Part shown: one piece after another, positions 8,909-62,423 of the stretch | How the letters are laid out: each line of letters starts with the position of its first letter | How positions within the stretch are numbered: the first letter of the stretch is position 1 | From: a virus | Length of the DNA stretch: 64,000 bases | Strand: one strand, 5' to 3' | IMG/VR virus record: IMGVR_UViG_3300028415_000003 | Span: 6,814-70,813 of that record | Made by a program: the position numbers and the translations under genes | Notes under the pieces: generated by a model | Told to the model about the DNA's origin: nothing | The model's database searches: none | The model's input: the letters and a program-made list of their open reading frames with translations, nothing else

Positions 8909-9976
8909 ATGGGAAACTTAGTAAGAAACACAAATCGTCTGCTTATCAATAGTGATAAAGATCAGTTTGTTGCCGACACAACGAACAATAAGCTTTTTAT
9001 CAAAGATTATGCAGGCTCTATCGAAGCTAACAACGCTTCATATGCAGGGCAAGCAAAAACGGTCCTGAAAGCAGGAAAGAAAACTCCTGTACCTTCAATT
9101 GTTGTTTTGGAAACTGAACCAATGGTTGCTTCACAGCCCATAAGCTTCAGCAATGGAATCAATATTCGCAAGCAAGCAAAATTCAAAGGCTTCCAGGATG
9201 AGATTCCGGAAGTGGCAAAGTACTACGATGGTTATATCGAGCACTGCGCCCCTATCAATGGAGCCACTCTTGCTGACAGTGATCTTGTAAAACTTCGGGA
9301 GAGCATTAAAAGCCTTATCAATGGTGACGTTCATGGCTTTGGCTATGCAGGTATTCCATTGATTTTTGATGTTGGCGATGTGGCTACAGCAACGACCGCA
9401 ACTATCATTATCGGAAGTACCGAAAAAACGTACACAGGAGCGGACACGACGGCATTTGCAAAAGCTGTTAATGACGCTGGCCTTGCTTATGCCGTTGTTT
9501 CTGAAGAAAGCGGCTTAGTTATTATCACTGGTCTGAAAGGTGAAGATATTACTGAAGCTGCTATTCCTGGATACGAGAATCTAAGCTTGAATGCTAGTTA
9601 CACTCGTCCGCTGTATGTCATTGCACGTGAGGAAACTCGTAGGCTGATGATTACACCTGACAATGTTGGGCCTGTTATTCATACTCAAGCAGGAGATTAC
9701 GGATACCTTACCTCACTGGATATGTACCGTCTCTTCTCAATCAAGCCTTATGATTTCTTCTCTCGTCCAAAGGTTCCAATAGAAGATGTGGACTATGTAA
9801 AGTATCGTTTTGAGATTGTCCATGAGGGATATGCACTCGATGGGTTTGGCCATGAAGACAAGGTTCGTGAAAAGATGGAAATCTATCTGGCCGACACCGG
9901 GACTCAGGTTTTCGACTTTGAAACAAAACTCGATACTATTGGTCTATCGCCTATTGGTGATAGTTTTGTAATATAA
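8909..9976 (+). CDS. Putative auxiliary capsid protein
   Basis: 355 aa, Ala/Thr/Gly-rich, followed by a terminator, consistent with a high-copy structural protein; synteny. Confidence 0.5.
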   Translation: MGNLVRNTNRLLINSDKDQFVADTTNNKLFIKDYAGSIEANNASYAGQAKTVLKAGKKTPVPSIVVLETEPMVASQPISFSNGINIRKQAKFKGFQDEIPEVAKYYDGYIEHCAPINGATLADSDLVKLRESIKSLINGDVHGFGYAGIPLIFDVGDVATATTATIIIGSTEKTYTGADTTAFAKAVNDAGLAYAVVSEESGLVIITGLKGEDITEAAIPGYENLSLNASYTRPLYVIAREETRRLMITPDNVGPVIHTQAGDYGYLTSLDMYRLFSIKPYDFFSRPKVPIEDVDYVKYRFEIVHEGYALDGFGHEDKVREKMEIYLADTGTQVFDFETKLDTIGLSPIGDSFVI

Positions 9977-9988
9977 TCAAAACTATTT

Positions 9989-10005
9989 GTGGGTGGGTAG
10001 TTCAC
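9989..10005 (+). repeat. Solo IS200/IS605 right-end motif GTGGGTGGGTAGTTCAC
   Basis: Identical to 62396-62412; near-identical to 59214-59230 and to the tnpB element right end (GTGTGGGTAGTTCAC on the - strand ending at 48425). Confidence 0.7.
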
Positions 10006-31300: not shown

Positions 31301-34300
31301 GCTTCAACAGCATTAATTGACAGGGCAGCCAATGATACAGATATAAGAAAGTTAATTGATGATCAGATGGTTGGTTATATTTTGTTTGAATCTGCTGTAA
31401 AATCAGGGAAAAGAAAAATAATAGATTTTGATGTGCCTATAGGAGAAATGCTAACACTTCAAAATGTATCAATAAATAAAAGCTTAAACAATGAAAAGAA
31501 CAGGATTAAGATAAATAATGACGCTTATAAAATTCAGACTGTTACAAAGCAAGATGTGATTGAAGCTGAAAAAGTTATCCCTACTCAGATTCTTAGTGTT
31601 ATCGGTGGCTTAGATAACGAAACAAATGAGACAATTGTAAAGGAAGTAAACCATGGATTAGCCGGTACTGCAAATATTATTCGAGAGAAACTTGTTTCTA
31701 TGAGTTCAGGCAAAAGCATAGAGTACATGAAAGAGTTGTTGCATTATACTGCAATGAAGCGTGGAGATACAGGAAAAGCAGGGCGGGTATCTGCATGGGC
31801 AAGTCCTGATGTTTCAAGAAATAAAGCTATTGCTGCTTTTCTTACCGCAGTGAATAAATATATAAAACCAAATATGGCCGGACAGTCTTTTGTTCAAGCT
31901 CCGGACCTTGGTAATATGTATTTTGATAAAGACGGGAATGCATACTTGCCTTCTGATCTTGATCTTGATGATGATTCTCAAAATGTTGATGGTAAAGTAA
32001 GGCGGCCATTAAAGCCAATACTTTTTATAGTAGAAGGCAAAGAAACAAAAACTGACGGCACTTTATTCACAAAAGAAGAGCTTATTGAAGCTCAAAAGGC
32101 AGGGAAAAAAGTTGAGATTAAACCTGCTGAAGTGATTGCTCCTTTTGGCTACATGAAAGTATTCGGAATTACTCGTAACACTACGCTTCGTGATGTTATG
32201 AGTGTAGTCATAAATGGCAAGGAAGTGAAATTTGATAATGCAAATCCTGAATATAAAGACGTTCAGAATAAAGTCAATAAAGCTTTTGAAGGAATGGAAC
32301 TGGACGGCATACTTGATTCCTTCCATCCTGATATCAGAACAGAAATTATCAGAAGGTTTACACAGTCTATTCGTGTTAATGATAAATATGATCTGCTTGA
32401 TACTATTCAAGAAAGCAATCCGAAACTATACAAAGAAATCGATAAGCAATTAAAAACTCTTGATGAAGAAGGAATTCCTGGAGAAGGTAGCAAGGCTTTT
32501 GGTTTAATGATGAACGTGATATCCAATTATTATTATAACCTGAATAAAGCTTTAAACGTATTTGGGGTCCGTATTCCTACGACCAACGCATCTTCAGGGT
32601 GGGTCGGTCGTATTGTAGCTTTTGACTATGAAAGCGAAAATACAGTATATACTTCTGCAGAAAAGAACATTCTTGACGGTTCTGATTACGATATTGACCA
32701 AGTTTCTATGTATTTCCTTTCTCTTGATGAATGGGGAAATGAAATAACTCCTGATTCAGTCATTAAAGAAAGAATGAAGGCTGAGAAAAAAGCACATAAA
32801 GAAACAGGTAAACTAAAAGAGAAAGCAGAAGATCCGAATTCAATTGATGAAATAGATGCAGATTATTCAAAGGCAGAAAAATTTGATACTAAATATAATG
32901 GGAATATGATATTCACTGCTTTGCAAAAGTTTTATCGTGAGTCCGGAAATATCGAAATGATTCTTGAAGAAATTAATCTTGATAGTTTCCGTGATAAAGC
33001 GGACCTTGTTCCTCAGGAATGGCAGGAATTTGTTTCTGATATTAGTTCTAACATGAAAGCTTCAGAGATTAATCTCTCAGGGCAAAAGCTTGTAGGGCAC
33101 TTTCAAAACCTTGAAAAGTTTACGCTTAAATTGTTAGCAATTCCAAAAGCCACAAGGGATCAAATATTGCCTCCTGAAAAGTTTAAAATGTTTTCAGGTA
33201 ATAAGGCTATTTCTGAGCAGATCGCTTTTGTTGCAAAGCTTATTAATGCCGCTACCGATAACGCCAAAGAAGGTGGACTTCTCGGTAGACTGAATATTAC
33301 AGAATCAACTTCACCTATTGTGAATGGAATGGTGATGGCCGGTCTTTCAGAAAAAGAAATACTAGATATTTTACAGAATGAAACAATTTTAAATGCTTCT
33401 AAAAAGAGCATGACATCTAAGTCTATTACCGGGTATAATGATAATGGAGTTCCTGAAAACGCACAATATAAAATAATTCCTATATGGGAAGCCATAAGTG
33501 AATATATATCAGGAGATTATTTTGATACTCCCACACACCAAATAAAAGATGAAAAAGATCGCTTTCTCGTTCAAATTCGTGAGTATGCATATATGGGAGA
33601 GCAATTGCGGAGATTTGGAAACATTACTAATATTCAACAGGAGATTAGTATTGAAAATTCTAAGCGAAATAATGTAATCAATAGTATTAATGAAGCCATT
33701 GGAACCACTGATGCAGATGAATATATTCAGCGCAGGCTTGCAGGAGAATCTACAACTGGAATTATGAATATTCCTACTGACGGGCATGAGTCAAATATTA
33801 GAAAACAATTTAATATTGGTGATGCAATGATGGAAAACGAAATGCTTTATACACATGTAAGAACACTTGCTCAGGTACAAAAAACAATTAATGAATCTAT
33901 TACTACAGATAAGGTTATTAATAAAGCCAAAGGAACAATTGAAAAACGTCTTGGGCAAAGCATTAATATTCCTGTTGTTTATGAAACGATAGAACGTGGT
34001 ATTGAAGATTATATTGTCGGCCAGTTTATTGCTGATAATTTTAAAGAAGTAACGGTTGGAGATCAGGCTTATGACTTATCGTTAGCAAAAAATAGGGTAA
34101 GATTTAGTATGGATTTCCCTTTATTTATTGAGGAATATACTTTTAACTGGTATAAAAATGCACCAAAAGGGAAGAAGAATAATACTTTCTTGAGAAGGGT
34201 TAAGCAGCGTAGTACAAAGTCCGGCTACCTTTATCTTGATTTTTCTTCATCTAATGATGTGAACGATACCCATAAAAAACTGTACCGAGATCATTTTGAG

Positions 34301-37300
34301 ATAATTGATGAAAGTGTTAAAAATGCTTTTAGAGCGTATCAGTTATTAATGAATGGGTTCCGTTATAAGAATGGGTCTATGATTGATTTTACGGATGAAA
34401 AAGCAGAACGCCAATACACAAATTGGATTCAATCTTTTGATCCGGAAAAGATAAATGAAAACGATCTTGCTGAGCAGGTTATTCTTCGCAATAAGGAACT
34501 TGTTCATTATGCAGCGGACACCGAAAAACTTATGAAAAAGTTGAAAAAGAATGATATCATTACGTCATTGATTTATTATACGCCAAAAAAGGCATCTTTC
34601 AACCCACACATTTATAAGTTTGATATTAAAAAAGGAACTAAAGAGTATCTTAACAGTCCTTATCCTACATTGATAAACACGTATTCTGCTAAATCTGAAA
34701 CAACAAATCTGCCTGTTATTGACGCTCTTTCCAGCAAGGAAATGAGAACGTTTAAGAATAATGATTCTGTTATAATCAAATCATATTTTCCTATAGTTGT
34801 ATGGCACCAAAAAAACAACGACTACCCTTACTCATTATCAAACAAGGATCAAGCTGTGCTTCAAGATGGAACTGTTGGAAATGTGGAAATTGTCGGTCCT
34901 AAACATAAAAAAGACAATCTAACAAATACAAGTATAATAAAATTCACTAAGGCAAATAAGCCTCAAGCTTCAAGGATATCTAAAAATCAAAGTAAAGCTT
35001 CATACTATGTTTTAAAGTCATTCATGGATAAGTTACAAAAAGCTTTTCCAAATATCCGCATTAATTATGTGAATAACATTACGAGCAAACATCCTGAATT
35101 GATAGGGTATTTTGAGAACGGACAGGTCTTTTTCAATACAGATAAATTGCAGCTTGACACGCCTATTCACGAGATTACTCACGTGTTCATTGACATACTT
35201 GAAAGTGCAAATCATGAACTGTATCGTGCTCTTGAAAATGAAGCTATAACTTTAATTGAAAGTAATCATGAGGTCGTTCAGGAAATCCTTAAAGAATATG
35301 CAGATATTTCAAAAGTGGATCTTGTTAAGGAAGTTATTGCAACTATGGCCGGATGGAATAGCCAGGAAGCCGTCAGAAATCTTTTAGACAAGACTCCGGG
35401 CATGAACTCTGATCAAAAAGCAAGTACGCTATATGGCAAAATTTCGGCCCTTGTCAATCGTTTTTATACATGGTTGAAGAATGCGGTTTATGGCGCGTTA
35501 GGTGTTCAGCAAATAAACAGTAGAACATTAAAGGATTTCGATTTTAAAAATGCTACTATTAAATCATTCGCTGAAATGATGGTTAATGCTGTTAATAACG
35601 GACAGGTTCTATCGTATGTGTCCTCAAAGCAAATGAGTAATATAGCCAAGGCTGACGTTTATGCTTCAAAAATTAAAACGATTTATGATGTAAAGAAGAT
35701 GGCCAAGGTGCTTACGAACCCAAGTGACAGGTTTGATTTCGAGGAAATGTCAACTGATGCTAAGGTCGATTATGTTTACAATCTTATTGATACTAATACA
35801 GGTAAAATCGGGGCTGGTCTAACTGGAACAGAATATAATTTCAAAGGAATGACAGTAGATGAAATCAAATCTACTATTCGTAAAAAGGTTATTACTGAAT
35901 ACGAAACTCGTGATAATAAATTTAAAGCGAAAATAAGTAACTGGATTAATGAACATGAAGCTTCTGTGCATGATTCTATAGAAACTTTTGGAAAAACTAG
36001 TAACGATATTCCTATTTATAAGGTTCCTATTCTCAAAAAGTTTAAAAAGCAGATTGAATATGCTTCATTTAAAGAGTTTGGAAGAGTTTCTGAGCTTGAA
36101 AAAATGGAAGGTGGAGAAGAGATTGCGAAGCATTTGTCAAAAAGTATCCGAAGTTTCGATCCCCATATTTCAATAGAGAAAACGTCTGACGGTTCAATTT
36201 ACGTGTCGCTTTATGATATTACCATGGACAATATCGACAGGCCGGATATAGAAAATGAGCTTGGCAATATTGCTTCTCGATTTTTAACGGATAGAGAAGC
36301 TAAAAAAATGGGTCTGTCTATGACAAATAACCCAGGTGATGTTCGTCAGCTAATGCTTGTTTTAATGGCAAACAAACTAATGAATGCTAATCCTAATATT
36401 AAGATTAAGGAGGCAGGAGTTATCAGTCTTAAGCCTTCAGGTAGCCAAATGAAAATGATTGATTTTTTAAAGGTTAATAAGAACATTAGTGTATTGTCTC
36501 AAATAGATGATTTTATAAATAGTTTGAGTCCGGAATTAAAAGAATTGTTTAAGCAGGAATTAAAAATTCCAAAAGTAGATTATGAAAAGCTTCTAAATAA
36601 TTTTTATGAAAATGCAGCCGATAACTCGTTCCCTAAATATATAAAAATGCTATTTCAGAATCCTGAAAATTATACTGTTATACAGAAAAAGAACCTGTTA
36701 ATGGCAAGACTCAGATATGCGCTTGAAAATAATGACGAAACAAATAATTATCGTCAGGAAATTAATCTGCTTACGCAGACGTTACTTGATCTTAAGACGG
36801 TAAATGTGGTTGACACTGAAATGAATAGTGAGGATATGTCACTGCTTAGTGATATTGATAAATTCATTCAACCCGGACAATATATTGCCAATGATATCAT
36901 TCAGGCTTTACGTGAAATAACCCTGGACACTTCCAATAAAATTGTTGAAGAAGTTCAGGAATTTCAATCTGAATTTAAGCCTATTCAAAAATGGTTTGAG
37001 AGTAGAAATAGTGGTATTTCAATAGGTTTTGGAGATAAGTCTCACAGGTTTTTCAAAGATTTATTTGTAAAACGTGACATTGACGGTTCTGGAAACGAAG
37101 TTTTTACTGGTGAAATATTCTGGACTACTGATGAAACAAAAGATCCTGTTAACGCAAAAAAAGCAAAAGAACTTGGTCTTTCTGCAGAACTATTGGAACA
37201 GGGAGAAAAACTTGTGAATATGATTACGGATCAATATATCGACCTTGTTTATCATTATCATGAAATGCAAGGATATATGAAAAATCTTAAAACTGGTAAG

Positions 37301-39160
37301 CCTAATTATAATTTTACAAAGAAAGACGCTTATGAGTCGTTAATGCAAAATTCTTCATATCAGAAAGGGATGCTTCCTTTAATGACAAAAACTTCTGAAC
37401 AATTATTTAATGAAGGAGAATTAGGGAAGTCTAGTAAAAAACGGCTGAGTCAGATTACTAACAACATGAACATGTTTGATGATGCAAATGATCTTTCAAA
37501 AACTGACGTGAAAGAAATAAATAAGCTTTCTGATCAATTCTTTAATCAAATTGGGTACATGCGTGAAGGCAGTAACACAAAGTTTGGTAGCCATGCAAGA
37601 ACTTTTGATATTCTTGGAATTGGGAAAAATTCAAAAGGAGAAATTGTTCTTGACAGTCAGGAGAAAAACAACAATATCACTACTGATATTGAAACAATTA
37701 TGAATTATTTTGCCATGAGTTCTAAGCGAAAGATTCATTATGAAAACGATGTGCTACCTATAATCAATGGAGCAAAAGTTTTTATGACAGATATGAAAAA
37801 TCATAAAGATAAAAATCTGAGTAATGAAATTGATTATGTGGAAATGTTTACGGAAATGTCTATTCGCGGACAACGCCGTAACCTTGGTGGTGATATTGGA
37901 GGAGTAGAGCTACAACCAACAATTAGTACACTTTCAACTGTTGGTGGTACAATTGCGCTTTTCGGTAATGTGAATGTTGGTGTTGTATCATCATTAATTA
38001 ATGGAATGCACTCGTTCGTGGAAGGAATAGCGAACCAGTTTGTTGAACGTGGGATATTTAACTTTTCGGATCTTATCAAAGCAAACAGGTTAATATTCAG
38101 CGAATGGGGGAAGATGTCTGAGCTTTGTAAGATGTATCAGAATATTTCAATGAGTGAATGGGAATTAATTTCACATCCTCAAAATATGAGCAAAACGAAA
38201 AAAGGACAGATTCTTTCAAGGTATTGGGGTCATATGTTTAACTATGCTTCTGACTATTATGGTCGTAATCTGGTAATGATTGCTCAAATGGTGCATGATG
38301 GAACCTGGGATGCTCATGAATTTGATAGCGAAACAGGGAAGATTAATTACAATCGGAAAAAAGACAAGCGTTTTTATGATGAAAACGGACAAATGACTGA
38401 AGACGGAAATGTACTGTATGAAACAATTCGTAATCAAGTTTATAAAGATGGATTCAAAGGACAGAAAAAAGAAGGAGAACTTGTAAGGGCTTATACCCGT
38501 AAAGAATCGAGGAAGTTTAAAAATATTTCTGATATGTTTGTTGTGGGAGCTTATACGGATAAAGAAAAAGTCATGTTGACTCACTATACACTTGGCCGCT
38601 TCTTCGCTGTATTCCGTAATTACTTATTTACACACGTCCAAAATGCAGTAATGAAAGGTCATTATATTGGTGATGTTGGAAGGTACAAAGTGAAAAAGGA
38701 TGCTCATGGCAAGCCTATGGCTGAATGGGAAAGACTTTACATGGAAGGATGGGTCAGAACAGCAACACGAATGATTGGCGATGTGGTTAAAACAAGAAGT
38801 CTTGACAACTTTAAGAATATGAGCGAATCTGAGAAATACAACTGGTTAAGAATTGCATCAAAAACATTGATGGTTCTTGGTGTTTCTATGCTTTACAACA
38901 TGTCTGTGAAAGACGATGATGATGATAAAACAGGTTTCGTTCCGGATTGGAGAATCCTTCGAAACATAAAATATTCTTATGCCGGTGTGTTTGCCTTGTT
39001 TGATAGTGGAATTATCTCAAGTCCTTTTGCAATTATTTCTGTATTTAAACGAATACTTACTAATCCTATAGGAGAATTTGAAGTTGAAAATATTCAAAGA
39101 TTTGCTCCGGGATATACAACAATAGAAACACTTTATGAACCAATTAAAAATGAAGAATAA
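19343..39160 (+). CDS. Giant virion-packaged RNA polymerase polyprotein (6605 aa) with SF1 helicase and zincin-like domains
   Basis: Two-barrel RNAP catalytic DxDxD in GSDYDID (DYDID at 32684-32698) preceded by RIPT; TDG motif ~31016; Walker A GFAGTGKTT (23594-23620) with IFDE, LGDDNQ, VYRS and TGVSRA; HEAMH (27479-27493) and HEITH (35168-35182). Confidence 0.88.
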   Translation: MQSKTEQTQINIPEKESLEPPEQKVKSKDKDINSQNSFLQEQNDEPPLMDFSYALRVYDYNIADVKQDELRTKVTYAMPSPKQFAENNPRLANDEEAFNTMYSIIEDKWRLYKDGDFSQWSTEDIYVPDNKYGDYLKRKTGQNYPSFIQYDDPKPVSQTSRRFPGIGTVEIATADEVADKTPFIKDKEGRVLPVDYENLETQYFNDFKRVQNLEKGIDFFWQEAKDGERIAGDKIRSALGPRHLESSWYKAIPRGLWSGTAPMMVRGSGQFIEVIGDLIDPSDQDKWSDRVGTNSLNWANKYSKQNYDEMEGAFNNWSSFRYQVMNGIGQISSTVLLNYATGGMFSSLGLSTQLSGKIAKHFGMSFMAAEAAGAFREEAKNLGIGEFDSALLFPLIMAATYASERVIPADWEHQGFSRYTKRNLRKTINNEFKEYAKTTGIPITSIGKNGKETLIKRSLNKWKEGFKNWGPKSGVSRSFLGAFDESLEEIGEGYMHSGIKDLYNLYADAEASETLNRYNESSWKESDNPDKMIEILSDGSEVEIPKKEYEAIQKDIELSTKIKNKEGGMFDDTSVNFEEGAIAGISSLLTGLPINLMQQRKEDNSENKFIELALALENGDIKDKDLDAAIKEAKKDGVLGSKVATENGDVVNVKGTTKDGQPAETQANQSKRIVRESIGVFRDIIKRYGINSAEVLKATMGDKSVIKEATKIARKLDEAKKALEALEVDPSIFTEEDSQKYNSVEEKTKKLEADVERYSKKFADATQPKEGGKYSKTYSSLYFESAQVFYGAEKKLKKKILDKDFDGKKYENLTLEERDKYKKKLNKQRKDLVETQRPQILQDIYQFQALRSASGEEVHKQTQALFDEVAENYLKEEERVLKSTQDRFDKSILSDEKRESVDKAITDLEKQVGEIANYKEGSEVSLSEKFENTKKSYRKIQNFIADVEIGALHGDAKAQQWLGELEGMRAQSEAAVDQALGNLNDMFGEVNEANKVDPELLDADREVASGNTELFNRLRNKRGKSIENLTVEEQLEVLNQIIEKHPVFLDEKKEDPSTLESVFRKYKEMMDNKVAVMNPASMEKHLEQIKAVLTTLRNQFEMNVELMQNDIEANENTAEHSPLRDKPYQRIDQGTRPVLNKEESISEGESNYTQIIEKIDNYLNTVKDVKEYVAQTKSSRDSYKVKAKSLHLGARVFALNGFMEIDSKLNIKELDDIEKVLNEHNVKTINELLYLFSKSKKEKQEEIQGAITKIERLIVQAETFLEGKMDNVLKELAEGATTFTALKDFVYGSAISPNENSGLLSESNLEVGKKDFNSENKNTDLGELYQYIMISKALQINRFGGKDFSKEDLYAIYRDMLSEKEQKGSDEFVPNYEQEQALMEIVSFLFDPKFDSFKNFLSEDEHDTMIRNGLYVRGFAGTGKTTIVLKNSIQLLSKLKGRGVKVTIVSPNRNLQSNIDKDLQDVSEIETSNNILLSEFLEGKASIDPDSDIVIFDEISVITRDQSNIIKDKLNNSQIPSLFLGDDNQVSDLSYTDDQGAVLTPKMPIMEKTQRTIPMTEVYRSGVSDLHYIQDYYRNLRTTASEGDRTDLPITSFSGEGASMKGVRYMETTQEIEEAFMDYMKNNPNAPVTEVMLIVKNKAERDEFLRKHPEYENHVRTVEFIIGNEENAISGIASRHVFFATNPVVTSTPNGIVTESRIGLTGVSRASESLVMIGKVSKSKKTDKVPESESINTEEISEIRQEEIRRLHEITSKKAPGNKTDNEDNEIDSKSDFRSINLTEDGKNQVIVESEEKINELKNKGVSALKDLNSEDPTLTHITESLFEKTGNENANTRSRNSMVKAALLYNFNSSETNEKAFRERIQEYFEATETKYTEDELFSILSNSLFASKEILDILDEDLTLVNLPFVSGDKIAMPAIVKIVGYSNGQPVVDVYDFRITSGKSITKLSEYDKKKLAAYADILRANGLKINNLKISNIVETFEKKGDSVSLEYFYGKTLKLDSEEAISLMSFENENEANETFVGQEEFFENERSLTENKGFKLGQLIQDKDSLIFHKLHGITSKRIEGKIVTQYHIETENGNIKAVNQSEFESQYQVPNTEDPVTRFKTTAEDFENGVDTNTTNTFFVTDAEAVKILGENSSSVPVEDFYNPDKNVVYARKMLLVKYFYPGVRVTKEYRDGGKVFGMKNGQMVRFEYDGKIAINRMSEKDIDKALDLLNSYGEEITKQEFIDQGLDIVSADFEPEFNFGAVDKTNTEGKVRSIQPKAYNTYMEETDDSKAEALLDKMFENAFDNDDNLATREALIEMNKERMRRLRSEEKVESVVNSVEPGKIIRVFDDFIPIKNLIDKLVKKRQVIEAKDQDNMYVISESKRQKNGKWRNTITIKLDGVGELTFLIDRKIVKNNKDLDYFLQDLSEVEDLIKAYEENFKDLSNKEKADLFKEVEESVLFRFVKTNANILNNYKDQLPLRFNDKGVSIKGSTPLQKIKSLKSIAKFISSAIANNSIDQYFRYPAKNKSGKIDIAHFESIVHDVTQPNLNLEFNRISKSAPKEQETKKHEPVKPESISSLDLSSRTSLTIDDINNNSVEDIVSAFETIGATIDEFEAEILSEAKKGDADMNEILEALNQKLSDDEEYPKLVSTENKLSFVSLEKARETLRSIIGDLTDTNVFFHNGYLYTKDGQRALGLTRDALIKLAMLDGKTSSQTVRHEAMHFIINNMVKPGQRKKILETARKEMEDNGEKINSESDIHEYISKLYENSENIKFKNLLQRFIMWLKKVANQFGAYHYTFDEILYLADQGYFKDRHALSSNENTFYKVENEHNSEESIKYLESRIGDVQLVDWVKNNIFIPEFIEQSPFGRGLNENKTVGEALLALYNKYDSIDEKTREKLSRVLDRDGSLNFEKIKRMFNTPLGRKYLKRDIYPVLLSDKKIFASMTQIALGRVNLNALVDFKRKKALDSESVSGASGQKLVEAESFDPNLSRSEFQKMLLQSIPIYDEGKKAKVEYNGNIVYYANPNTMDHILIDAANRLKQMGKRHFTDQEFFDMLEKMKNETDKSKYKTLIYSFMSTFGNKKFADSEGNADLNFRMQNNGYQALAEDEQVSLEKRKRYRDIVSGFISYYSSLGNVSLALVNLTEKQSWEVKSSADDKVMKAYIRESMKTHFIGQGGFLNKDVSEVFDSANQKNLSVTKEGIFFNGKLYIKGDIKKQSPMAISIILNNLKLNKKGIFTQRIIEELNKEVIGQSSEKGNKNWSMSLGQYLHAITAGLQARVIVDKEYTKHFDNGGKARDLKFSKETKAALDLAKSLYQKASIQWDSVEQNTNRTSERSGVPDLPSPADFYMYYEYIGNLMKQYNADIGTRMIVNSEGNFEYSHPLSSNLYDAAMGGSRSLIAHVSDLSKKDYVSNLPRKIKNENIDPVSPIIGNNGYNNPILANVISVDPIQKFDGIKTFLRSGGIDKMTDKDFAKVIIEELTYKQIIKGGNESVLPSLYGTLADKKNRSVFNVVSERNPIFFKSFAEGYDFLEELGVNYTGLANSIDLFVNYYEKTNNLALGRWNNVLGKNFKSTESLQKYIEEGLSAAETKVIINQLTEKKDYFEKFNPETRTIKITGLGNSIITEDSNIIYKPSFIAEWRKTNTIKDLIKRGRKQQELLEKATLESRQQFAEWIADSGYKMTSKMTDLFKQFGYNMESGEQISDMIEKHIEELREKEKKRKEIGYKIGERKKIEAEIDKLRGTEKKEALKEAEENLEQFDQQFKNLNEMYGTLKKEIKAIQQKHTKESRKIRKQIIENKYQSEGNQIHPLIDIAFWNFHVLNESMDQIVRGSQTNYANLTDFIKRGSSLTGPGTHVDTSRKDGVGKTANTLILRDIPGLQKQFSEKFEEELHTDGLSIVNPIWAEMLKRSAGQEFGNVHNGMLKPMIFDYNPVTDDLIYAKLSQMPINNRQFRNNKIFKQMFEMMVGEELMPYFMEEYENNGQDIRKASTALIDRAANDTDIRKLIDDQMVGYILFESAVKSGKRKIIDFDVPIGEMLTLQNVSINKSLNNEKNRIKINNDAYKIQTVTKQDVIEAEKVIPTQILSVIGGLDNETNETIVKEVNHGLAGTANIIREKLVSMSSGKSIEYMKELLHYTAMKRGDTGKAGRVSAWASPDVSRNKAIAAFLTAVNKYIKPNMAGQSFVQAPDLGNMYFDKDGNAYLPSDLDLDDDSQNVDGKVRRPLKPILFIVEGKETKTDGTLFTKEELIEAQKAGKKVEIKPAEVIAPFGYMKVFGITRNTTLRDVMSVVINGKEVKFDNANPEYKDVQNKVNKAFEGMELDGILDSFHPDIRTEIIRRFTQSIRVNDKYDLLDTIQESNPKLYKEIDKQLKTLDEEGIPGEGSKAFGLMMNVISNYYYNLNKALNVFGVRIPTTNASSGWVGRIVAFDYESENTVYTSAEKNILDGSDYDIDQVSMYFLSLDEWGNEITPDSVIKERMKAEKKAHKETGKLKEKAEDPNSIDEIDADYSKAEKFDTKYNGNMIFTALQKFYRESGNIEMILEEINLDSFRDKADLVPQEWQEFVSDISSNMKASEINLSGQKLVGHFQNLEKFTLKLLAIPKATRDQILPPEKFKMFSGNKAISEQIAFVAKLINAATDNAKEGGLLGRLNITESTSPIVNGMVMAGLSEKEILDILQNETILNASKKSMTSKSITGYNDNGVPENAQYKIIPIWEAISEYISGDYFDTPTHQIKDEKDRFLVQIREYAYMGEQLRRFGNITNIQQEISIENSKRNNVINSINEAIGTTDADEYIQRRLAGESTTGIMNIPTDGHESNIRKQFNIGDAMMENEMLYTHVRTLAQVQKTINESITTDKVINKAKGTIEKRLGQSINIPVVYETIERGIEDYIVGQFIADNFKEVTVGDQAYDLSLAKNRVRFSMDFPLFIEEYTFNWYKNAPKGKKNNTFLRRVKQRSTKSGYLYLDFSSSNDVNDTHKKLYRDHFEIIDESVKNAFRAYQLLMNGFRYKNGSMIDFTDEKAERQYTNWIQSFDPEKINENDLAEQVILRNKELVHYAADTEKLMKKLKKNDIITSLIYYTPKKASFNPHIYKFDIKKGTKEYLNSPYPTLINTYSAKSETTNLPVIDALSSKEMRTFKNNDSVIIKSYFPIVVWHQKNNDYPYSLSNKDQAVLQDGTVGNVEIVGPKHKKDNLTNTSIIKFTKANKPQASRISKNQSKASYYVLKSFMDKLQKAFPNIRINYVNNITSKHPELIGYFENGQVFFNTDKLQLDTPIHEITHVFIDILESANHELYRALENEAITLIESNHEVVQEILKEYADISKVDLVKEVIATMAGWNSQEAVRNLLDKTPGMNSDQKASTLYGKISALVNRFYTWLKNAVYGALGVQQINSRTLKDFDFKNATIKSFAEMMVNAVNNGQVLSYVSSKQMSNIAKADVYASKIKTIYDVKKMAKVLTNPSDRFDFEEMSTDAKVDYVYNLIDTNTGKIGAGLTGTEYNFKGMTVDEIKSTIRKKVITEYETRDNKFKAKISNWINEHEASVHDSIETFGKTSNDIPIYKVPILKKFKKQIEYASFKEFGRVSELEKMEGGEEIAKHLSKSIRSFDPHISIEKTSDGSIYVSLYDITMDNIDRPDIENELGNIASRFLTDREAKKMGLSMTNNPGDVRQLMLVLMANKLMNANPNIKIKEAGVISLKPSGSQMKMIDFLKVNKNISVLSQIDDFINSLSPELKELFKQELKIPKVDYEKLLNNFYENAADNSFPKYIKMLFQNPENYTVIQKKNLLMARLRYALENNDETNNYRQEINLLTQTLLDLKTVNVVDTEMNSEDMSLLSDIDKFIQPGQYIANDIIQALREITLDTSNKIVEEVQEFQSEFKPIQKWFESRNSGISIGFGDKSHRFFKDLFVKRDIDGSGNEVFTGEIFWTTDETKDPVNAKKAKELGLSAELLEQGEKLVNMITDQYIDLVYHYHEMQGYMKNLKTGKPNYNFTKKDAYESLMQNSSYQKGMLPLMTKTSEQLFNEGELGKSSKKRLSQITNNMNMFDDANDLSKTDVKEINKLSDQFFNQIGYMREGSNTKFGSHARTFDILGIGKNSKGEIVLDSQEKNNNITTDIETIMNYFAMSSKRKIHYENDVLPIINGAKVFMTDMKNHKDKNLSNEIDYVEMFTEMSIRGQRRNLGGDIGGVELQPTISTLSTVGGTIALFGNVNVGVVSSLINGMHSFVEGIANQFVERGIFNFSDLIKANRLIFSEWGKMSELCKMYQNISMSEWELISHPQNMSKTKKGQILSRYWGHMFNYASDYYGRNLVMIAQMVHDGTWDAHEFDSETGKINYNRKKDKRFYDENGQMTEDGNVLYETIRNQVYKDGFKGQKKEGELVRAYTRKESRKFKNISDMFVVGAYTDKEKVMLTHYTLGRFFAVFRNYLFTHVQNAVMKGHYIGDVGRYKVKKDAHGKPMAEWERLYMEGWVRTATRMIGDVVKTRSLDNFKNMSESEKYNWLRIASKTLMVLGVSMLYNMSVKDDDDDKTGFVPDWRILRNIKYSYAGVFALFDSGIISSPFAIISVFKRILTNPIGEFEVENIQRFAPGYTTIETLYEPIKNEE

Positions 39161-48424: not shown

Positions 48425-49769
48425 GTGAACTACCCACACACTAAAAAGATGTGTGGGCTTCCTGTACAACGCATAGCCTAATGGCTTACGTTAGCGTACA
48501 AAGGGTTGTCCCTAACCCCGAAATTTTTTATATTATACGCAGCGTTAAGGTCTCTATCTATTGAATTATTACACTTATCACAATTATATGTCCTATCTGA
48601 AAGTTTTAAATCTTTCTTGTGGTTTCCACAATTAGAACATACCTTACTGCTCGGTCCAAATCTACCAATTACAACAAGGTTTTTACCTTGCCAATCAGTC
48701 TTATATTCAAGCATTGTTCTTAATTGTCGCCAACCCATATCAGATATTGCTTTAGCTAAATTATGGTTCTTAACCATATTACTAACAGCTAAATCTTCCA
48801 AAACAATCGTATCATACGTGTTTACTAATTCAGTAGATATTTTATGCAAGTAATCAGTCCTTTGGTTACGGATTTTTTCTTGCAATAATGCTACTTTTAA
48901 TTTTTGTTTTTCTCTATTTATCGAACCCTTTTGTTTTCTTGAAAGGCTTCTTTGTTCAACTCTTAATCTTCTTTGTTGTAATTTAAAGAAGTTTTTGTTT
49001 TCATATACTACGCCATCAGAAGTAATTGCTAAATCTTTAATACCAAAATCAATACCAACAGACGTTTCTGTTTTTATACTTTTTTGTTTTGGTTTTTCAG
49101 TTTGAGTATCAACCAATATTGAAACAAAGTATTTACCAGTTACCGTTTTCGTTAGTGTAACTCTTTTTGGTAAGCCTTTAAATTCTCTATGGTAGCCAAT
49201 AGCAACTTCTTTAAGTTTAGGTAATTTTAAAATATTATCCTTAAATGATATTTCAAATCCTTGTGGAAATGTAATTGACTGTTTAGAGTACTTATTTTTA
49301 AATTTAGGGAATTGACCCCTACCTTTAAAAAAGTTTTGGTATGCAGTATCTAAATTAATTATACTATGTTGTAAAACTTGGCTTGGACACTCTTTAATGT
49401 AATCAAACTCTTTTTTTAATTCTGGCAGTTGTTTAATTAAATCATACTTAGATATTGATGTTTTATTTGAAGCATACGCAACACTCTTAGTTTCTAAACC
49501 AAGGTTATACACCAATCTATTAACTCCAAAGTACCTTTGTAATTGGGCTTTTTGAGTTTCCGTTGGAAATATTCTGTATTTGTATCCTTTTAGCATATAT
49601 TATTAAATAGTCTAAACTTTTGTAAAAGTACAATATTTTTTATCTAAAATCAAGTTCTGGTTAAAATTTGTTTAATTGATACCATTAAACAATACATATT
49701 ATCACAAGGCTAATAGTCGCTTACATCCCATCCACGCTAAAGCGATGAATGGGTTTTACGCTCCAACGT
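48425..49769 (-). mobile_element. Non-autonomous IS200/IS605-family (IS1341-type, tnpB-only) element
   Basis: On the - strand: TTTAT target motif (49774-49770), left end with hairpin CCCATTCA-TCGCTTTAGCG-TGGATGGG, tnpB, right-end hairpin CCCACAC...GTGTGGG ending GGGTAGTTCAC; no tnpA. Confidence 0.88.
48478..49596 (-). CDS. tnpB: RNA-guided endonuclease TnpB
   Basis: N-terminal YKYRIFPT HTH; RuvC GIDFG / LEDL / DRDLNAA all intact; Zn ribbon CSNC...CDKC. Confidence 0.95.
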   Translation of the reverse strand: MLKGYKYRIFPTETQKAQLQRYFGVNRLVYNLGLETKSVAYASNKTSISKYDLIKQLPELKKEFDYIKECPSQVLQHSIINLDTAYQNFFKGRGQFPKFKNKYSKQSITFPQGFEISFKDNILKLPKLKEVAIGYHREFKGLPKRVTLTKTVTGKYFVSILVDTQTEKPKQKSIKTETSVGIDFGIKDLAITSDGVVYENKNFFKLQQRRLRVEQRSLSRKQKGSINREKQKLKVALLQEKIRNQRTDYLHKISTELVNTYDTIVLEDLAVSNMVKNHNLAKAISDMGWRQLRTMLEYKTDWQGKNLVVIGRFGPSSKVCSNCGNHKKDLKLSDRTYNCDKCNNSIDRDLNAAYNIKNFGVRDNPLYANVSH

Positions 49770-55681: not shown

Positions 55682-57205
55682 TTAAAAGTTAAAATTTGAA
55701 AAATCGTCCTCTTTACCGGTGTTTCCGGTGTCGGGTGATTCCATTTGATTTAGTTGATTAGAAAAGTCGGGTAGTTTCCGTTCTTTTTCTTCTTTAGATT
55801 TTGGAGGAGCCTCTACTTTTTGAATATCTGTGCTTTTTTTTGGCTTAGAATCGTAATTTATACGTTCCTCAAATTCAAGCTGAAAGTCACCTTTCTCTAC
55901 TTTATCGATAAAGATTTGGCAATTATTTTTCGTGGCTTGTTCTACTATTTTTTCAAGGCTTTCCGGATCAAGTGATTCAGCACGGCCTACCACAATGATT
56001 GGAGCCTTCTGATTCATTTCAATAAGAACACTAATCGCTATTTCCATAATTTTGGAAGTGCTTATTTGATTCTTATTGAAAGGGAGGCCGTTAATTGATA
56101 ATCCATCACTAGTAATCTCAAGACCTTCAACCGGAAGCTTATTCTTCTGTACCAGTAGTTCTTTTTCTTCCCTGGTATTTCGTAGCTTTGTATCTTCCTT
56201 TTTGATTAAGCTGGTATACTTATCAAGTTCATTTTTTTTCTTTGTGAAACTATCTACTCTTTTTAAAGCTTCATTAATTTTGTTGAACTTTATTCGGGTT
56301 GCTTCAACAGCTTTTTCAGCAGTGTCGAATTTCTCTTTATTGAATTTACCTAAAGCATGAAGATCTTCTTCTTTCTTTTTTTTATAAGTGCCGTAATCTT
56401 TTTCGAGTTTTGTAAGACCGGCTTCTTGTTCATCACGTCTTTTTTCCAATGCTTTGATTTGATCGTTAATTTGATCAATCATATCGCTATGTTGTCTTTT
56501 CCGTGATTCATAAGATGTTTGAGCTTTATCAAGCTCACCCTCAATAGTTTCCATATTTTTTTTGTGGATTTTTTGAGCATCCAATTCTTCTTCAGCTTTA
56601 TGCCACTTTTTTTCGTACTTATCGACTTCATTAGCCATCTGTTTTTCTTCCTCAGAAGGTTTTTCGCTTTGAATCATTTTCTCGTATGCATCGGCATTAC
56701 GCTTTAATTCTCTGCGTTGATCGAAAGCTTCCTTTTCTTCTTCCATTGCTTTTCTGAAGCTTTTTTGTATTTCATCAGGTAATAACTTAAGAACTTGATC
56801 TCTTTGCCATCTTCTTCCTTCAGCTGTTTCTGATTTTGCCACAAATTCTTCTGGAGAAAAAGCGTTGTAATTGAAAATATCACGAATCTCGGTAACTTTC
56901 CTGCTGATCTTGCCATTCGGGTAGGCAATTTTGATTTTAGATTTGTCATTTTCGAATTCGATTTTTACGGTATACTTGTCACCGTTGGGAGCTTCAAATA
57001 CGCCTTCTAATGAACCTTCTTTTTCCCCGGTTGTTACAGGAGTGTCTACACTTATTTTGGCTTCCAGTAAAGAAATAATGGCATTAGTAAAGGTTGTTTT
57101 CGCTTTGTTATTACCACCTTTTACATAGATAATGTTGCCGTTAATGGGTGTATTGAGCTCTGTTAACTTTTTGAAGTTTTCTATTTTGATACGTTTTAAT
57201 TGCAT
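55682..57205 (-). CDS. SMC/Rad50-like coiled-coil ATPase
   Basis: Preferred start MQLKRIKIENFKK (57205); variant Walker A GGNNKAKTT; long coiled coil; degenerate signature/Walker B (ISTSK, IVVGRAESLD). Confidence 0.75.
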   Translation of the reverse strand: MQLKRIKIENFKKLTELNTPINGNIIYVKGGNNKAKTTFTNAIISLLEAKISVDTPVTTGEKEGSLEGVFEAPNGDKYTVKIEFENDKSKIKIAYPNGKISRKVTEIRDIFNYNAFSPEEFVAKSETAEGRRWQRDQVLKLLPDEIQKSFRKAMEEEKEAFDQRRELKRNADAYEKMIQSEKPSEEEKQMANEVDKYEKKWHKAEEELDAQKIHKKNMETIEGELDKAQTSYESRKRQHSDMIDQINDQIKALEKRRDEQEAGLTKLEKDYGTYKKKKEEDLHALGKFNKEKFDTAEKAVEATRIKFNKINEALKRVDSFTKKKNELDKYTSLIKKEDTKLRNTREEKELLVQKNKLPVEGLEITSDGLSINGLPFNKNQISTSKIMEIAISVLIEMNQKAPIIVVGRAESLDPESLEKIVEQATKNNCQIFIDKVEKGDFQLEFEERINYDSKPKKSTDIQKVEAPPKSKEEKERKLPDFSNQLNQMESPDTGNTGKEDDFSNFNF

Positions 57206-58199
57206 TGTAGATGTGTTTTTTGATATGATATGAGCTGACGTTTCTCTTGACAAATACACGCTCTGCATAATCTGTAATATCATTGATCCATGTACTGTTT
57301 TTCAGCGTACAGTAACCAAGGATATCTGATAAATGCACTATTGGTATATCGTAAATGTCAACATTTTTTCGCATTCCAAGAACACCGGTTTTGTCATTGT
57401 CGTACATGATAAATAAATACGGTGTCTTTTTCATTAAATCCTTATACAGCCATTGCATAAGGAAAGCAGATTCACTGTTCAGGCTTACACACTTAATTCC
57501 TAGGTGTTCATACATTACAAGAACATCACGGTTCCCACCAATGATTCCAATGGCTGGTTCATGATCATTTAACGCTGAGTACCCGAATACTTCCTTTTCT
57601 GGGTTCATATTGTTTTTGAACTTAGATTTTTTCTCATGGAAAGGAGCATAAAATTTCTGTCCTTTGCCTTCTTGGAATAAGTATATAGGCTTTTGTTTTG
57701 TGGCGTGTGTGACTATGTTTGGATGTTCTTTTAGATGAAACCACTTAATAGGAATTGTATTGTAAACTTTTAGTGTAGAAAGAGAGATACCTGTTTTCCA
57801 CCAAAATTTTGTGTTGTCATTATCCCAATTTGTGGATTTATAAACAAACTCAGTTCTATCAAAGAATTTAGGTTTGGGGAGTTTAGGTATTTTCTTGATG
57901 GGTTTTCTTTTATAGTCTTTAACATCTTCCAAATGGAAATCACTTGCAATAATATCAAGACCATCCCGGAAAGATACCTCATAATAGATCATTACATAAC
58001 CAAAAGCGTCTATAGCTTTAAATGCAAAGTCGTTATAAAGATACTTTCTGGAACGATTTCCATAAAATACATTAGCTGAAGGGTGTTTTTCTTCTCTTAA
58101 CTCAGAAATGAATGCCTTCCCTAATGTAAAATCATGGTTGATGTATTTCCGGAGGATATCAAGTTCATTGATGTGCTCAAGAATATCTTCTTTTTTCAT
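57141..58199 (-). CDS. DNA primase (crAss-like, TOPRIM)
   Basis: SELREEKHPS, YNDF, GNRDVLV, SLNSES, MYDNDKTG. Confidence 0.85.
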   Translation of the reverse strand: MKKEDILEHINELDILRKYINHDFTLGKAFISELREEKHPSANVFYGNRSRKYLYNDFAFKAIDAFGYVMIYYEVSFRDGLDIIASDFHLEDVKDYKRKPIKKIPKLPKPKFFDRTEFVYKSTNWDNDNTKFWWKTGISLSTLKVYNTIPIKWFHLKEHPNIVTHATKQKPIYLFQEGKGQKFYAPFHEKKSKFKNNMNPEKEVFGYSALNDHEPAIGIIGGNRDVLVMYEHLGIKCVSLNSESAFLMQWLYKDLMKKTPYLFIMYDNDKTGVLGMRKNVDIYDIPIVHLSDILGYCTLKNSTWINDITDYAERVFVKRNVSSYHIKKHIYNAIKTYQNRKLQKVNRAQYTH

Positions 58200-58201
58200 C
58201 T

Positions 58202-58966
58202 CTAAAAAGGTAAATCATCTTCTTTATCAGGGCTGGTTCCTATACTGTTCATATCAGCCGAAAAGTTATCGACATTGGAAGGAATACCTTCTTCGTTTTG
58301 ATTGGGCAAGGAAGCGCTTTGATTACGTTTTTTGGCAAGCACTTTCTTTTTAGTAGTTTCACTGATTTTCCAAACCTTGTTTTTTATGCTTTTGTCAAGA
58401 TTTTCAGCTTTTTTGATATCGCCTGTTATCGAAGTTATGGAAGGCATGTACAGCTCAGGAGAAAGAATAAGCCTGTCTTTGTAAACGATTTCACGGTGTA
58501 TGACAATTCCGTAAAATGCTATTTCTCTTCCCTTGAAATGTTCTAATCCTTTAGTAAGAACTGTTGCAATTTCTTCAAGATCGGCTTCTTCATTTTTGAA
58601 TTGAATTTGTTTACCAAAAGCATCATCAATAAAACCATAAAGCTGTTCAAAAGAAATACATTTTGGATCTCCGGTTTCTTTATCTTCAAAGGTAAAGAAT
58701 GGAAATTCCATACGGAAATCAAAATAATTGTTTTTACTGTTTTTCAGGGCTGTATTTAATTTAAGAATAATTTTCTGAACTTTTTTTCTCTCGTCGGTTT
58801 TTTTATCGTTGAACTCAAACGATGTGTGCTCAACGTCAACAATTACAAGTTTTCCAAGTCCTGTAGGAAATTTTTCCTTGTTCATGTTTTGAATGGATTT
58901 CTCTTTAGCTTCTTTACTCTCGCTAATTGTTTTTTCAAGTGCGTTTTTTCTTACATTAATTTTCAT
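58202..58966 (-). CDS. Putative single-stranded DNA-binding protein
   Basis: Acidic C-terminal tail EDDLPF; next to primase and helicase. Confidence 0.65.
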   Translation of the reverse strand: MKINVRKNALEKTISESKEAKEKSIQNMNKEKFPTGLGKLVIVDVEHTSFEFNDKKTDERKKVQKIILKLNTALKNSKNNYFDFRMEFPFFTFEDKETGDPKCISFEQLYGFIDDAFGKQIQFKNEEADLEEIATVLTKGLEHFKGREIAFYGIVIHREIVYKDRLILSPELYMPSITSITGDIKKAENLDKSIKNKVWKISETTKKKVLAKKRNQSASLPNQNEEGIPSNVDNFSADMNSIGTSPDKEDDLPF

Positions 58967-59171
58967 AAGTTTGATTTTTTGTATAAATGTTTTAAACTCG
59001 TTATAAATATTATAGCTAATGAAAAAGACATATTTTTTATTAATCCTTTTCGCATTGATAATTCATAAGCTGTACCAGGCTCTTTATTTAGTTGGTCAAT
59101 AAGTTTCTTTTTTTTCTGATTTTTAAATGAATACGCAATGTCAATTATTTTTTGTACTCTTTGTGCTTTAT

Positions 59172-59230
59172 ATTAGGGAGCATAAAACCCATTCATCACT
59201 TTTGCGTGAAGCCGTGGGTGAGTAGTTCAC
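59172..59230 (+). mobile_element. 59-bp miniature IS200/IS605 derivative inserted in dnaB
   Basis: TTTAT (59167-59171), then GGAGCATAAAACCCATTCATCACTTTTGCGTG (matches the tnpB element left end) fused to GTGGGTGAGTAGTTCAC (right end). Confidence 0.85.
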
Positions 59231-60560
59231 TCCACTCATTAAATTTACAGTATTTTAGGTTTTCTAAATAACGAATTAGACCAAGTTCACTTTCCCTGTT
59301 TTTCGTCACGTCAAGAATAATCAAGTGTTCAAATACATTGTATTTTTCTTTGGACACTCGAAGTTTCTCTGCTATTTTTAAATCAGGAAATAATGAAGGG
59401 CGGTTCATAAGTATAACCTGATTTGCATAATCTGCAATTCGAGAAGATCCCCGTACATCTGAATCTCTTAGTCTGTAACCTTCAGTCATGCGTTTTTTGT
59501 TCTGTGATTCCTTTGTTACGTGGTGAATAACGATAATAATGCCTTTGGTATAGTCACGTAATTCAACCAATTTTTTGGCAATTAAATCATCATTCTCCAA
59601 TTGATGTTTCTTGTCAATTCCACTGACAAGACCAAGGTTATCAATAATCAAAACATTGGCTTTGGTTGGTCTCAAAATACAAAAGCGCTTAAAATCATTG
59701 CATATCTGATAGATATTTTTCGGTTTGGTAATGAACTCTACATCATCCTTATCGTATTGATTGTAAATCGCTTCCATGTCCTTAATATTACGATCAGTTA
59801 AACTGTGATTTCGTGATTGAATTTGGCGTTCTGTTAAATTTAAGTGACTGCTAACAACATTACGAAGAATAGCTTCACCGGATACTTCATAAGTGTGCCA
59901 GTTAATTGCTACATCTTTGTTGTGTTTTAATAAGTTAAAGGCATAATGAATAGAGAATTTTGTCTTTCCTGCCCCTTTTTGAGCAGCAATTAAAATGATG
60001 TTACCAGGACTAGTCGCTATGAAATGGTCAAAGTTTTTGTCTCCGGTTTCTAGGTAAGGCTTTTTTGCTCCAGATGCTTTCATTCGTACATCTTCAAGCA
60101 TAGACTTGAAAGATAATTTCAGTGTTTTTTGATCCTTGCTGTTTAAAGATAAATTGGAAATTTCTGTTTCGATTTTTTGTGTGATTTCGTCAGCAGGATA
60201 TTCTCCAAGCATTTTTTTAATTGTTTGGCTGAGCTCTAAGAGTTTCTTTTCGTTGTAGTTACCAATAATTACTGAGAGGTGATATTGCCATTTATCTTCA
60301 TCCTCATATTCGGTATTTATAAGGTTTTTGAAAATATCAATGTAATCTTCATTACCGCTTGATTCAAAAGCGTCAGTCATTGTTGATAAGCAGATTTCTT
60401 CATCTTGTTCTGAGATTAATTTGTAAATCGCCCAGAACATTGCATTTTTTTCATCCGTAAACATTGTTGCAGTAAGCTTTTTCTCTATAGAATAGTACAC
60501 TGCCAGATGATTAAAGCATTGTTTTAAGATGTTTTTTTCATAATTTTTCTCCTTTACCAT
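59196..60560 (-). CDS. dnaB: Replicative DnaB-like helicase (C-terminus altered by mini-IS)
   Basis: AAQKGAGKT, YEVS, IIDNLGL, DVRGSSRIADYANQVI, KNRE. Confidence 0.88.
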   Translation of the reverse strand: MVKEKNYEKNILKQCFNHLAVYYSIEKKLTATMFTDEKNAMFWAIYKLISEQDEEICLSTMTDAFESSGNEDYIDIFKNLINTEYEDEDKWQYHLSVIIGNYNEKKLLELSQTIKKMLGEYPADEITQKIETEISNLSLNSKDQKTLKLSFKSMLEDVRMKASGAKKPYLETGDKNFDHFIATSPGNIILIAAQKGAGKTKFSIHYAFNLLKHNKDVAINWHTYEVSGEAILRNVVSSHLNLTERQIQSRNHSLTDRNIKDMEAIYNQYDKDDVEFITKPKNIYQICNDFKRFCILRPTKANVLIIDNLGLVSGIDKKHQLENDDLIAKKLVELRDYTKGIIIVIHHVTKESQNKKRMTEGYRLRDSDVRGSSRIADYANQVILMNRPSLFPDLKIAEKLRVSKEKYNVFEHLIILDVTKNRESELGLIRYLENLKYCKFNEWSELLTHGFTQK

Positions 60561-61798: not shown

Positions 61799-62340
61799 TT
61801 GTGATTATTGTAAAGTATGGCTTTCACAATAATTCGGAAGTACAAGATTGTACTTATCCTCTATTAATAGTTAAGAATTAATCTAAACTGTTATATTTAT
61901 GAATTATTTTTCACATTCATAAAATGTAAGCGTTTCATTTACAATATTATCATGTTATTCTATATGTGTTCCGGGGTTGAAAGTGTCAAAAAAAGTTTAT
62001 AACTTCGTATCCTCAAATTACGCTCAGCATCTTTTTCTATTCTTATTCTATATTTTTTCTTTTCTTTTTAATCTTTTAAAAATTCCATTAATTTTCAAAC
62101 TCTCGGAGATAAACGCAGGGAAGGTGTAGTATAAAGCCAAAGCATCTGTATGCATTATATAGTAAATTCAATTGCTTTTTTTATAAATTGTCATATAGAA
62201 ATTATTCAAGCATTATAAAGGATTTGTGTCACAGGTTACATATACTTTGTTGGTTGTGCCAATCAAACTTTCCTGTCCTTCAGAATATACTTTCTCTACT
62301 AACATAACGTGCGCGTGCGCGTATATTAGAATTTTTGAAA

Positions 62341-62412
62341 GTGAACTATTCACTCACATCAGTTGACTTCTGAAGTCCATCCCATTTCTTCTGGCGTGGG
62401 TGGGTAGTTCAC
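62341..62412. repeat. Back-to-back pair of IS200/IS605 right ends
   Basis: GTGAACTATTCACTCAC ... GTGGGTGGGTAGTTCAC (inverted, 14/17). Confidence 0.7.
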
Positions 62413-62423
62413 TAGTAAATATT

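Follow-up and report, generated by a model that had tools for sequence, protein, structure and literature searches.

This locus raises the question of why the replicative helicase gene of a lake phage ends inside a 59-bp mobile-element remnant, and whether the open frame behind that remnant ever belonged to the helicase. The window, that is the whole stretch of DNA analysed, is 64,000 nucleotides long and corresponds to bases 6814-70813 of a linear 70.8-kb virus record estimated to be 81% complete. A sequence-only reading had proposed that the insert truncates a DnaB helicase and that its precise excision would restore a 69-aa C-terminus, the insert being either a recent tolerated insertion or a reversible switch between two helicase forms operated by TnpA in trans. 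The underlying observation is real; it reflects an ordinary fixed insertion of a known kind of element, and a switch is not supported. The account that we favour, with a probability of about 0.75, is that a degenerate PATE-like remnant became fixed at the junction between a complete helicase gene and a small ArsR/SdpR-like gene that is now a relic.

Setting of the insertion site

The insertion site lies within a block of replication genes on the minus strand, which holds the helicase, a 254-aa gene, a primase-like gene and AAA ATPases. The genes next to the site are:

59196..60560, minus strand: DnaB-family replicative helicase, 454 aa (Pfam, TIGR00665, PHROG 19)
58202..58966, minus strand: next gene, 254 aa, beginning MKINV, no family match above cut-off
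57141..58199, minus strand: primase-like gene (PHROG 12622, 1.8e-22)

The gene following the helicase had been labelled as SSB, a label that found no backing, as SSB or OB-fold family matches were absent from Pfam, PHROGs, PDB sequences and NCBIfam. Nothing was matched in Pfam or PHROGs at E <= 0.01 or among PDB sequences at E <= 1, and the only NCBIfam row was an unrelated one (teichoic_TarQ, E 0.0053, 15.7 bits vs a cut-off of 350). The product has an acidic C-terminus ending in DDLPF, which it has in common with its homologue at a related locus, L003 (L003 1959-2705). We take this end to be reminiscent of the acidic C-terminal tip typical of bacterial SSBs. A promoter and terminator scan of 58700-59500 gave nothing better than shuffles, a tRNA search returned none, and no Rfam family was found in the window. 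Elsewhere in the window, a single ORF spans 19343-39160 on the plus strand; it encodes 6605 aa, an unusual length given the size of the phage.

The helicase appears complete

The helicase ends ...FNEW-SELLTHGFTQK followed by a stop codon, as had been read, and its ORF was confirmed at 59196..60560 on the minus strand. Residues 1-443 are native, and residues 444-454 (SELLTHGFTQK) together with the stop codon are read from the mini element (59230..59196). The protein matched Pfam DnaB_C (PF03796) at 1.3e-17, with residues 171-441 on positions 3-254 of a 255-position profile, and its residues 4-442 were placed on positions 5-432 of 435 in TIGR00665 with a score below the equivalog cut-off. PHROG 19 was matched at 4.9e-29 and the DnaB N-terminal family PF00772 at E 0.0081 (16.6 bits vs a cut-off of 23). 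The claim that the insert truncates the helicase is contradicted by these alignments, in which the protein covers the DnaB profiles up to their last positions ahead of the insertion point. Judged from its sequence, the helicase appears to be complete, with its conserved domains kept.

The protein search returned 17 relatives, 16 of 437-455 aa and one 312-aa partial sequence. Ten of the 17 were aligned, and the C-terminal extension expected among homologues was found in none of them, all 10 ending 1-12 residues past a conserved EW (or EK/ER), which is the outcome that the sequence-only reading had itself named as its refutation. Two close helicases, P0002 (83% identical) and P0005 (80% identical), have short tails that differ. 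A helicase form of 512-523 aa was absent from 5.8 billion clusters. Three related loci were read in DNA. At L003 the helicase is 79% identical and ends in EWP and a stop codon, after which come an unrelated 239-bp spacer and a homologue of the MKINV gene; at L005 and L006 the helicases are 35% identical and end in DWQ and a stop codon, and the following gene begins one base further on. The ancestral helicase probably ended one residue after EW. Related helicase loci could not be confirmed in viral contigs, and a blastn search of phage GenBank records gave no match.

The spacer between the helicase and the next gene measures 239 bp in L003 (1720-1958) and 229 bp in the window (58967-59195), and the two sequences are unrelated. 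From these sequences, the position has the appearance of a variable slot that accommodates small genes in this phage group.

A terminal-only mini element in degenerate form

The insert and the element from which its ends can be recognised are:

59167..59171, plus strand: TTTAT, transposon-adjacent motif (target), read directly, adjoining the mini element on its 5' side
59172..59230, plus strand: terminal-only, PATE-like mini element, 59 bp, degenerate (end homology, TTTAT/TTCAC)
48425..49769, minus strand: full tnpB element, 1345 bp (TTTAT at 49774-49770, TTCAC end at 48425)
48478..49596, minus strand: tnpB ORF encoding a 372-aa TnpB (OrfB_IS605, 1.2e-27 in Pfam; guided_TnpB, 341.6 bits vs a cut-off of 100 in NCBIfam)

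Direct reading agreed with the earlier description of 59 bp preceded by TTTAT at 59172-59230; on the helicase coding strand, the motif at 59167-59171 is present as its complement, ATAAA. The plus strand of the element finishes in TAGTTCAC, that is, with TTCAC at its end. Left-end sequence comes first in its layout, followed by what is left of the right-end guide region (GAAGCC) and then by the right-end 3' arm with TTCAC. Its proposed origin, the left end of the tnpB element fused to the right end, was likewise upheld, with 29 of 32 bases identical between 59177-59208 and the left end (49764..49733, minus strand) and 15 of 17 identical between 59214-59230 and the right end. The left-end alignment scored 49, compared with at most 22 for 1956 59-mers taken at random from the window. 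For the right end, the score of 24 is not unique (random maximum 29), because right-end-like 17-mers also occur at 9989-10005 and 62397-62413. The flanks, TTTAT and TCCAC, show no duplication, and the insert has neither terminal inverted repeats nor coding capacity. These features identify it as a terminal-only, PATE-like derivative of an IS200/IS605-family element. Two other origins were considered and rejected: the 59 bp are not ancestral sequence, being absent from L003 and carrying a TAM, a TEM and left-end homology, and they are not an assembly artefact, being found in independent assemblies.

When the mini element was folded as single-stranded DNA, the canonical subterminal hairpin was missing from the minimum-energy fold (z -1.7, with 11 of 200 shuffled sequences folding equally well). 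The same folding produced this hairpin in the left end of the full element, in its right end and in a typical 51-bp mini. The subterminal imperfect hairpin is the TnpA binding site, and its loss here is a thermodynamic prediction. The copy is thus predicted to be degenerate, and it is atypical in its 59-bp length and its retention of GAAGCC; it is probably no longer excisable.

Relatives of the element in phages and in the lake habitat

No Y1 transposase was found in the 70.8-kb phage record. It is unlikely, judging from the ends, that the phage's own TnpB guards the mini copy, because the copy has a right end of only 17 bases and a right flank unlike that of the full element. A scan of viral contigs with a 15-mer of the left end gave at least 117 exact matches. 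Among the matches listed, 81 were chance occurrences by their flanks and 36 were real left ends; 33 of these 36 listed left ends are preceded by TTTAT, 26 continue as longer elements, and 10 are 49-52-bp single-hairpin minis at no fewer than 7 distinct sites. Each such mini consists of a single left-end hairpin that leads directly into (T/C)AGTTCAC. The mini loci are L017, L037, L045, L071, L073, L084/L090/L123 and L105/L111, and TTTAT precedes 6 of the 7 sites. Empty sites for these minis were sought in three flank scans (L084, L105, L071), which found only occupied copies, and for this reason the precise position of the left cut, after TTTAT, is taken from the experiments on ISGst2. The distribution of the minis suggests mobility of terminal-only PATEs within phage genomes. 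Since minis of about 50 bp occupy several phage-contig sites, host transposases are suggested to mobilise them in phage DNA.

Contigs of other organisms in runs X10, X22 and X24 carry the same left end (window 59167-59208) and continue as a full-length element. Left-end copies in those runs reach depths of 24-64, compared with 3-7 for the phage, which indicates that the IS family is common in the lake habitat.

Two further places in the window resemble parts of the element. At 62340-62413 (plus strand), two inverted right-end-like sequences form an 18-pair stem that includes three G-T pairs; the DNA fold has -13.1 kcal/mol (z -3.15, 0 of 200 shuffles as good), TTTAT is absent upstream, and the end of a viral-contig mini is identical to the 20 bases that lead up to 62413. 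A further degenerate PATE, or two of them nested, may lie here. At 9960-10005 (plus strand), a solo 17-base right-end-like motif ending in TAGTTCAC lies just past the stop codon of the ORF at 8909..9976. A 9-pair hairpin spans that stop codon before the motif (z -4.6, 0 of 200 shuffles), and no left-end part is present.

The tail behind the insert resembles a broken small gene

Removal of the 59 bp by script opened the helicase frame for 69 more codons, to the TGA within the ATGA at 58963-58966, in agreement with what had been claimed. The stretch behind the insert holds two parts:

59056..59171, minus strand: first part of a putative decayed gene (ArsR/SdpR-like winged-helix; phmmer, tblastn)
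58970..59062, minus strand: last part of the putative decayed gene, in another frame, that of the next gene (tblastn, three-frame translation)

The 68-aa tail itself had no family match in Pfam or PHROGs. A phmmer search of 1.84 billion representatives found one credible relative, a stand-alone protein of 95 aa (P0028), whose residues 4-42 align with tail residues 3-41 at 59% identity (E 1.4e-7). By tblastn, P0028 residues 2-39 matched window 59169..59056 (E 6e-14). Its residues 61-91 matched 59062..58970 in frame -1, with 16 of 31 residues identical (E 1e-5), in a collinear arrangement that abuts the ATG of the next gene. Between the two parts, about 21 residues have no counterpart in the window; they correspond to P0028 residues ~40-60, the helix-turn-helix core. 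The SdpR-family (ArsR-type) model NF033789 was matched by P0028 along almost its full length (E 4.3e-8; 32.9 bits vs a cut-off of 100), and P0028 also weakly matches several winged-helix Pfam families. A word-based protein search returned only P0028 itself for P0028 and no relative for the tail, and relatives of P0028 were absent from viral contigs.

Because its start matches the stand-alone P0028 and the end of P0028 lies in the other frame, the tail is most simply read as the wreck of a separate small ArsR/SdpR-like gene with P0028 as its single homologue. The 69-codon extension would accordingly comprise about 40 relic codons and about 29 out-of-frame relic codons that are open by chance. 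Shuffling left the last 29 tail codons free of stops in 3.6% of cases, and of the stop-to-stop runs of the gene block 7.7% are at least as long. A TAA within the mini element directly precedes the relic in its frame, and a possible start codon (ATG, GTG or TTG) does not appear before codon 39. The idea that excision would restore a helicase C-terminus is thus not borne out, the tail being homologous to a separate 95-aa protein and itself broken over two frames.

The insertion is fixed in the sampled relatives

The 90% identity cluster of the helicase has 10 members, of which 8 are full length (0-9 residues different) and 2 are fragments, and the IS-encoded tail is identical in all 10. A sibling contig, L004, is the same as the window over 431 aligned bases (58900-59330) apart from one substitution in the next gene. 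The stretch is held by 24 lake or salt-lake runs, 7 of them possibly its source. Contigs of 4 of these 24 runs were compared; they bridge the insert in 3 of the 4 (X8, X10, X22) and skip it in none, a count to be read with the proviso that Logan contigs drop rare variants and could miss low-frequency excised alleles. Alleles lacking the 59 bp, for which read mapping had been suggested, were not seen among the contigs of these 4 runs. The insertion-site flank had 0 matches in viral contigs. No empty site was found in the 10 protein variants, in the sibling L004 or in the contigs of the 4 runs out of 24, and at 79% helicase identity (L003) the spacer is unrelated.

The insertion is fixed in all sampled relatives of the phage and is not visibly polymorphic. 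Of the two scenarios offered earlier, a tolerated insertion is consistent with the data; the mini element sits behind TTTAT, and the conserved domains of the helicase are intact. The word recent does not fit, since the same tail is found in all 10 variants, with up to 9 residues of difference among them, and the copy is degenerate. The reversible switch is left without an insert-free allele in the protein databases, the sibling contig or the contigs of the 4 runs, and the record is without a Y1 transposase.

A probable history of the junction and its alternatives

The order of events at the junction may be reconstructed as follows. A PATE, or a full element later shrunk by deletion, would have inserted on the strand that does not encode the genes, 3' of a TTTAT whose complement sits at the natural end of the helicase, with a host TnpA presumably carrying out the integration. 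The target would have been the place where the end of the helicase gene overlapped the beginning of the small regulator gene. The last residue or residues of the helicase and its stop codon would have been replaced by 11 element-read residues and a TGA. The small gene would have been cut off from its start, and some 21 codons of its DNA-binding core would have disappeared together with a shift of the frame, or else it may already have been dead. The hairpin of the mini element would then have degenerated.

A single junction base decides between a fusion and two overlapping genes. With the canonical cuts, right after TTTAT and right after TTCAC, the helicase and relic frames join without a stop or a start codon. 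One extra junction base of any kind makes the helicase end in EW plus one residue and TAA (compare the EWP and stop codon of L003), and it also gives an overlapping ORF starting Met-Ser-Gly, while P0028 starts Met-Arg-Gly. The history of two overlapping genes has its own difficulties: it needs an extra junction base that is no longer present, and exact removal has the look of a true fusion; the relic rests on one homologue, P0028; and the 29 out-of-frame codons open to the exact ATGA imply a chance of a few percent.

A lineage-specific helicase-ArsR/SdpR fusion could instead have existed in the immediate ancestor, in which case the PATE would have uncoupled it and the orphan domain would have decayed. 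Such a fusion would explain why the frames join seamlessly under canonical boundaries, why the relic frame lacks its own start codon and why the first residue of P0028 aligns with the codon split by the insert. However, P0028 stands alone at 95 aa, the nearest helicase relatives (79-83% identity) stop after EW, and one extra base gives the overlapping two-gene layout, which is commoner and fits three observations at once. A match of P0028 to PHROG 12156 (DNA helicase) was considered as a precedent for a helicase-wHTH fusion and rejected, because it is weak (E 0.044) and that family matches nothing in this genome. We regard the fusion as unlikely, and the loss of one base at the junction as the likelier history, because indels are demonstrably tolerated in the relic.

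It is quite improbable that a functional, shortened small gene with an unusual or internal start persists in the open frame beyond the insert, remodelled rather than killed. The 68 open codons would suit a working gene, as would their ATGA overlap with the gene that follows, which is typical of coupling, and the sibling, 98% identical overall, has the same sequence in this region; however, identity at about 1-2% divergence is uninformative. Against it also stand the lack of an ATG, GTG or TTG before codon 39, the in-frame TAA directly upstream, the missing helix-turn-helix core, the true homologous C-terminus in the other frame and the absence of a family match.

A broader version of the fusion account, in which the PATE uncoupled an ancestral helicase-regulator fusion whose frames a host TnpA could still re-join, and in which 49-59-bp single-hairpin PATEs may move in the genomes of lytic phages, inserting at the complement of A-TAA-A stop contexts and remodelling gene ends, appears very improbable.

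Hardly credible is a native 69-aa helicase extension truncated by the mini-IS, with TnpA in trans toggling two helicase forms: exact removal of 59 bases does give one open frame to the ATGA of the next gene, scarless excision by TnpA is, as had been stated, established for ISGst2 with the same TTTAT/TTCAC pair (10.1101/2023.03.14.532601), and a TnpA source is plausible because left ends of the family are abundant in the same lake metagenomes (depth 24-64 vs 3-7 for the phage), but no extension exists in the 10 aligned relatives, none of the 17 exceeds 455 aa, the tail is homologous to a separate protein and split over two frames, the insert is present in 10 of 10 variants, in the sibling contig and in bridging contigs of 3 of 4 runs, the record has no Y1 transposase, and the hairpin is predicted to be degenerate.

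The preferred reading, a degenerate remnant between a complete helicase gene and a relic, makes this copy one more terminal-only IS605 remnant of little consequence that leaves the conserved domains of the helicase intact. It carries the caution that a frame re-opened by the removal of a mobile element need not belong to the upstream gene. The wider interest lies in the TTTAT/TTCAC minis of about 50 bp at several phage sites and in the variable slot between the helicase and the next gene.

Comparison with known systems

Among described elements, ISGst2 of Geobacillus stearothermophilus offers a close comparison. According to Meers et al. (10.1101/2023.03.14.532601), it has TTTAT as its TAM and TTCAC as its TEM, which differ at positions 3 and 5; its flanks are re-joined scarlessly by TnpA, and protein-free PATE-like derivatives are present in the same G. 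stearothermophilus genome. The element in the window is alike in its TTTAT/TTCAC pair, subterminal hairpins, TnpB cargo and PATE-like derivatives, the ends being compared by TAM and TEM only. Scarless excision by TnpA in trans is a feature of ISGst2. Unlike ISGst2, which resides in a bacterial chromosome, the window element is found in a lake phage whose record is without TnpA.

With regard to its host gene, the window helicase shares with phage DnaB-family helicases (PHROG 19, TIGR03600) a full DnaB C-terminal ATPase domain and the invariant glycine-lysine columns of the P-loop. It is unlike them in that its last 11 residues come from a transposon remnant and its N-terminal domain is weakly matched.

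Terminal-only minis are already a known kind of element, as 52-bp PATEs were described in Haloquadratum walsbyi (PMC3119063). These derivatives of ISHwa23 and HqIRS46 are described there as terminal-only copies with a core deletion between near-terminal palindromes, and the authors (Dyall-Smith et al. 2011) suspected that such copies are still mobile. They resemble the window copy in having fused IS605-type ends of about 50 bp with no inverted repeats, target duplication or coding sequence. The Haloquadratum PATEs are, however, archaeal and apparently unrelated in sequence, whereas the window copy has 59 bp, a piece of the guide region and a hairpin that is predicted to be broken. The 49-52-bp minis of viral contigs are a closer analogue of the window copy than the Haloquadratum PATEs.
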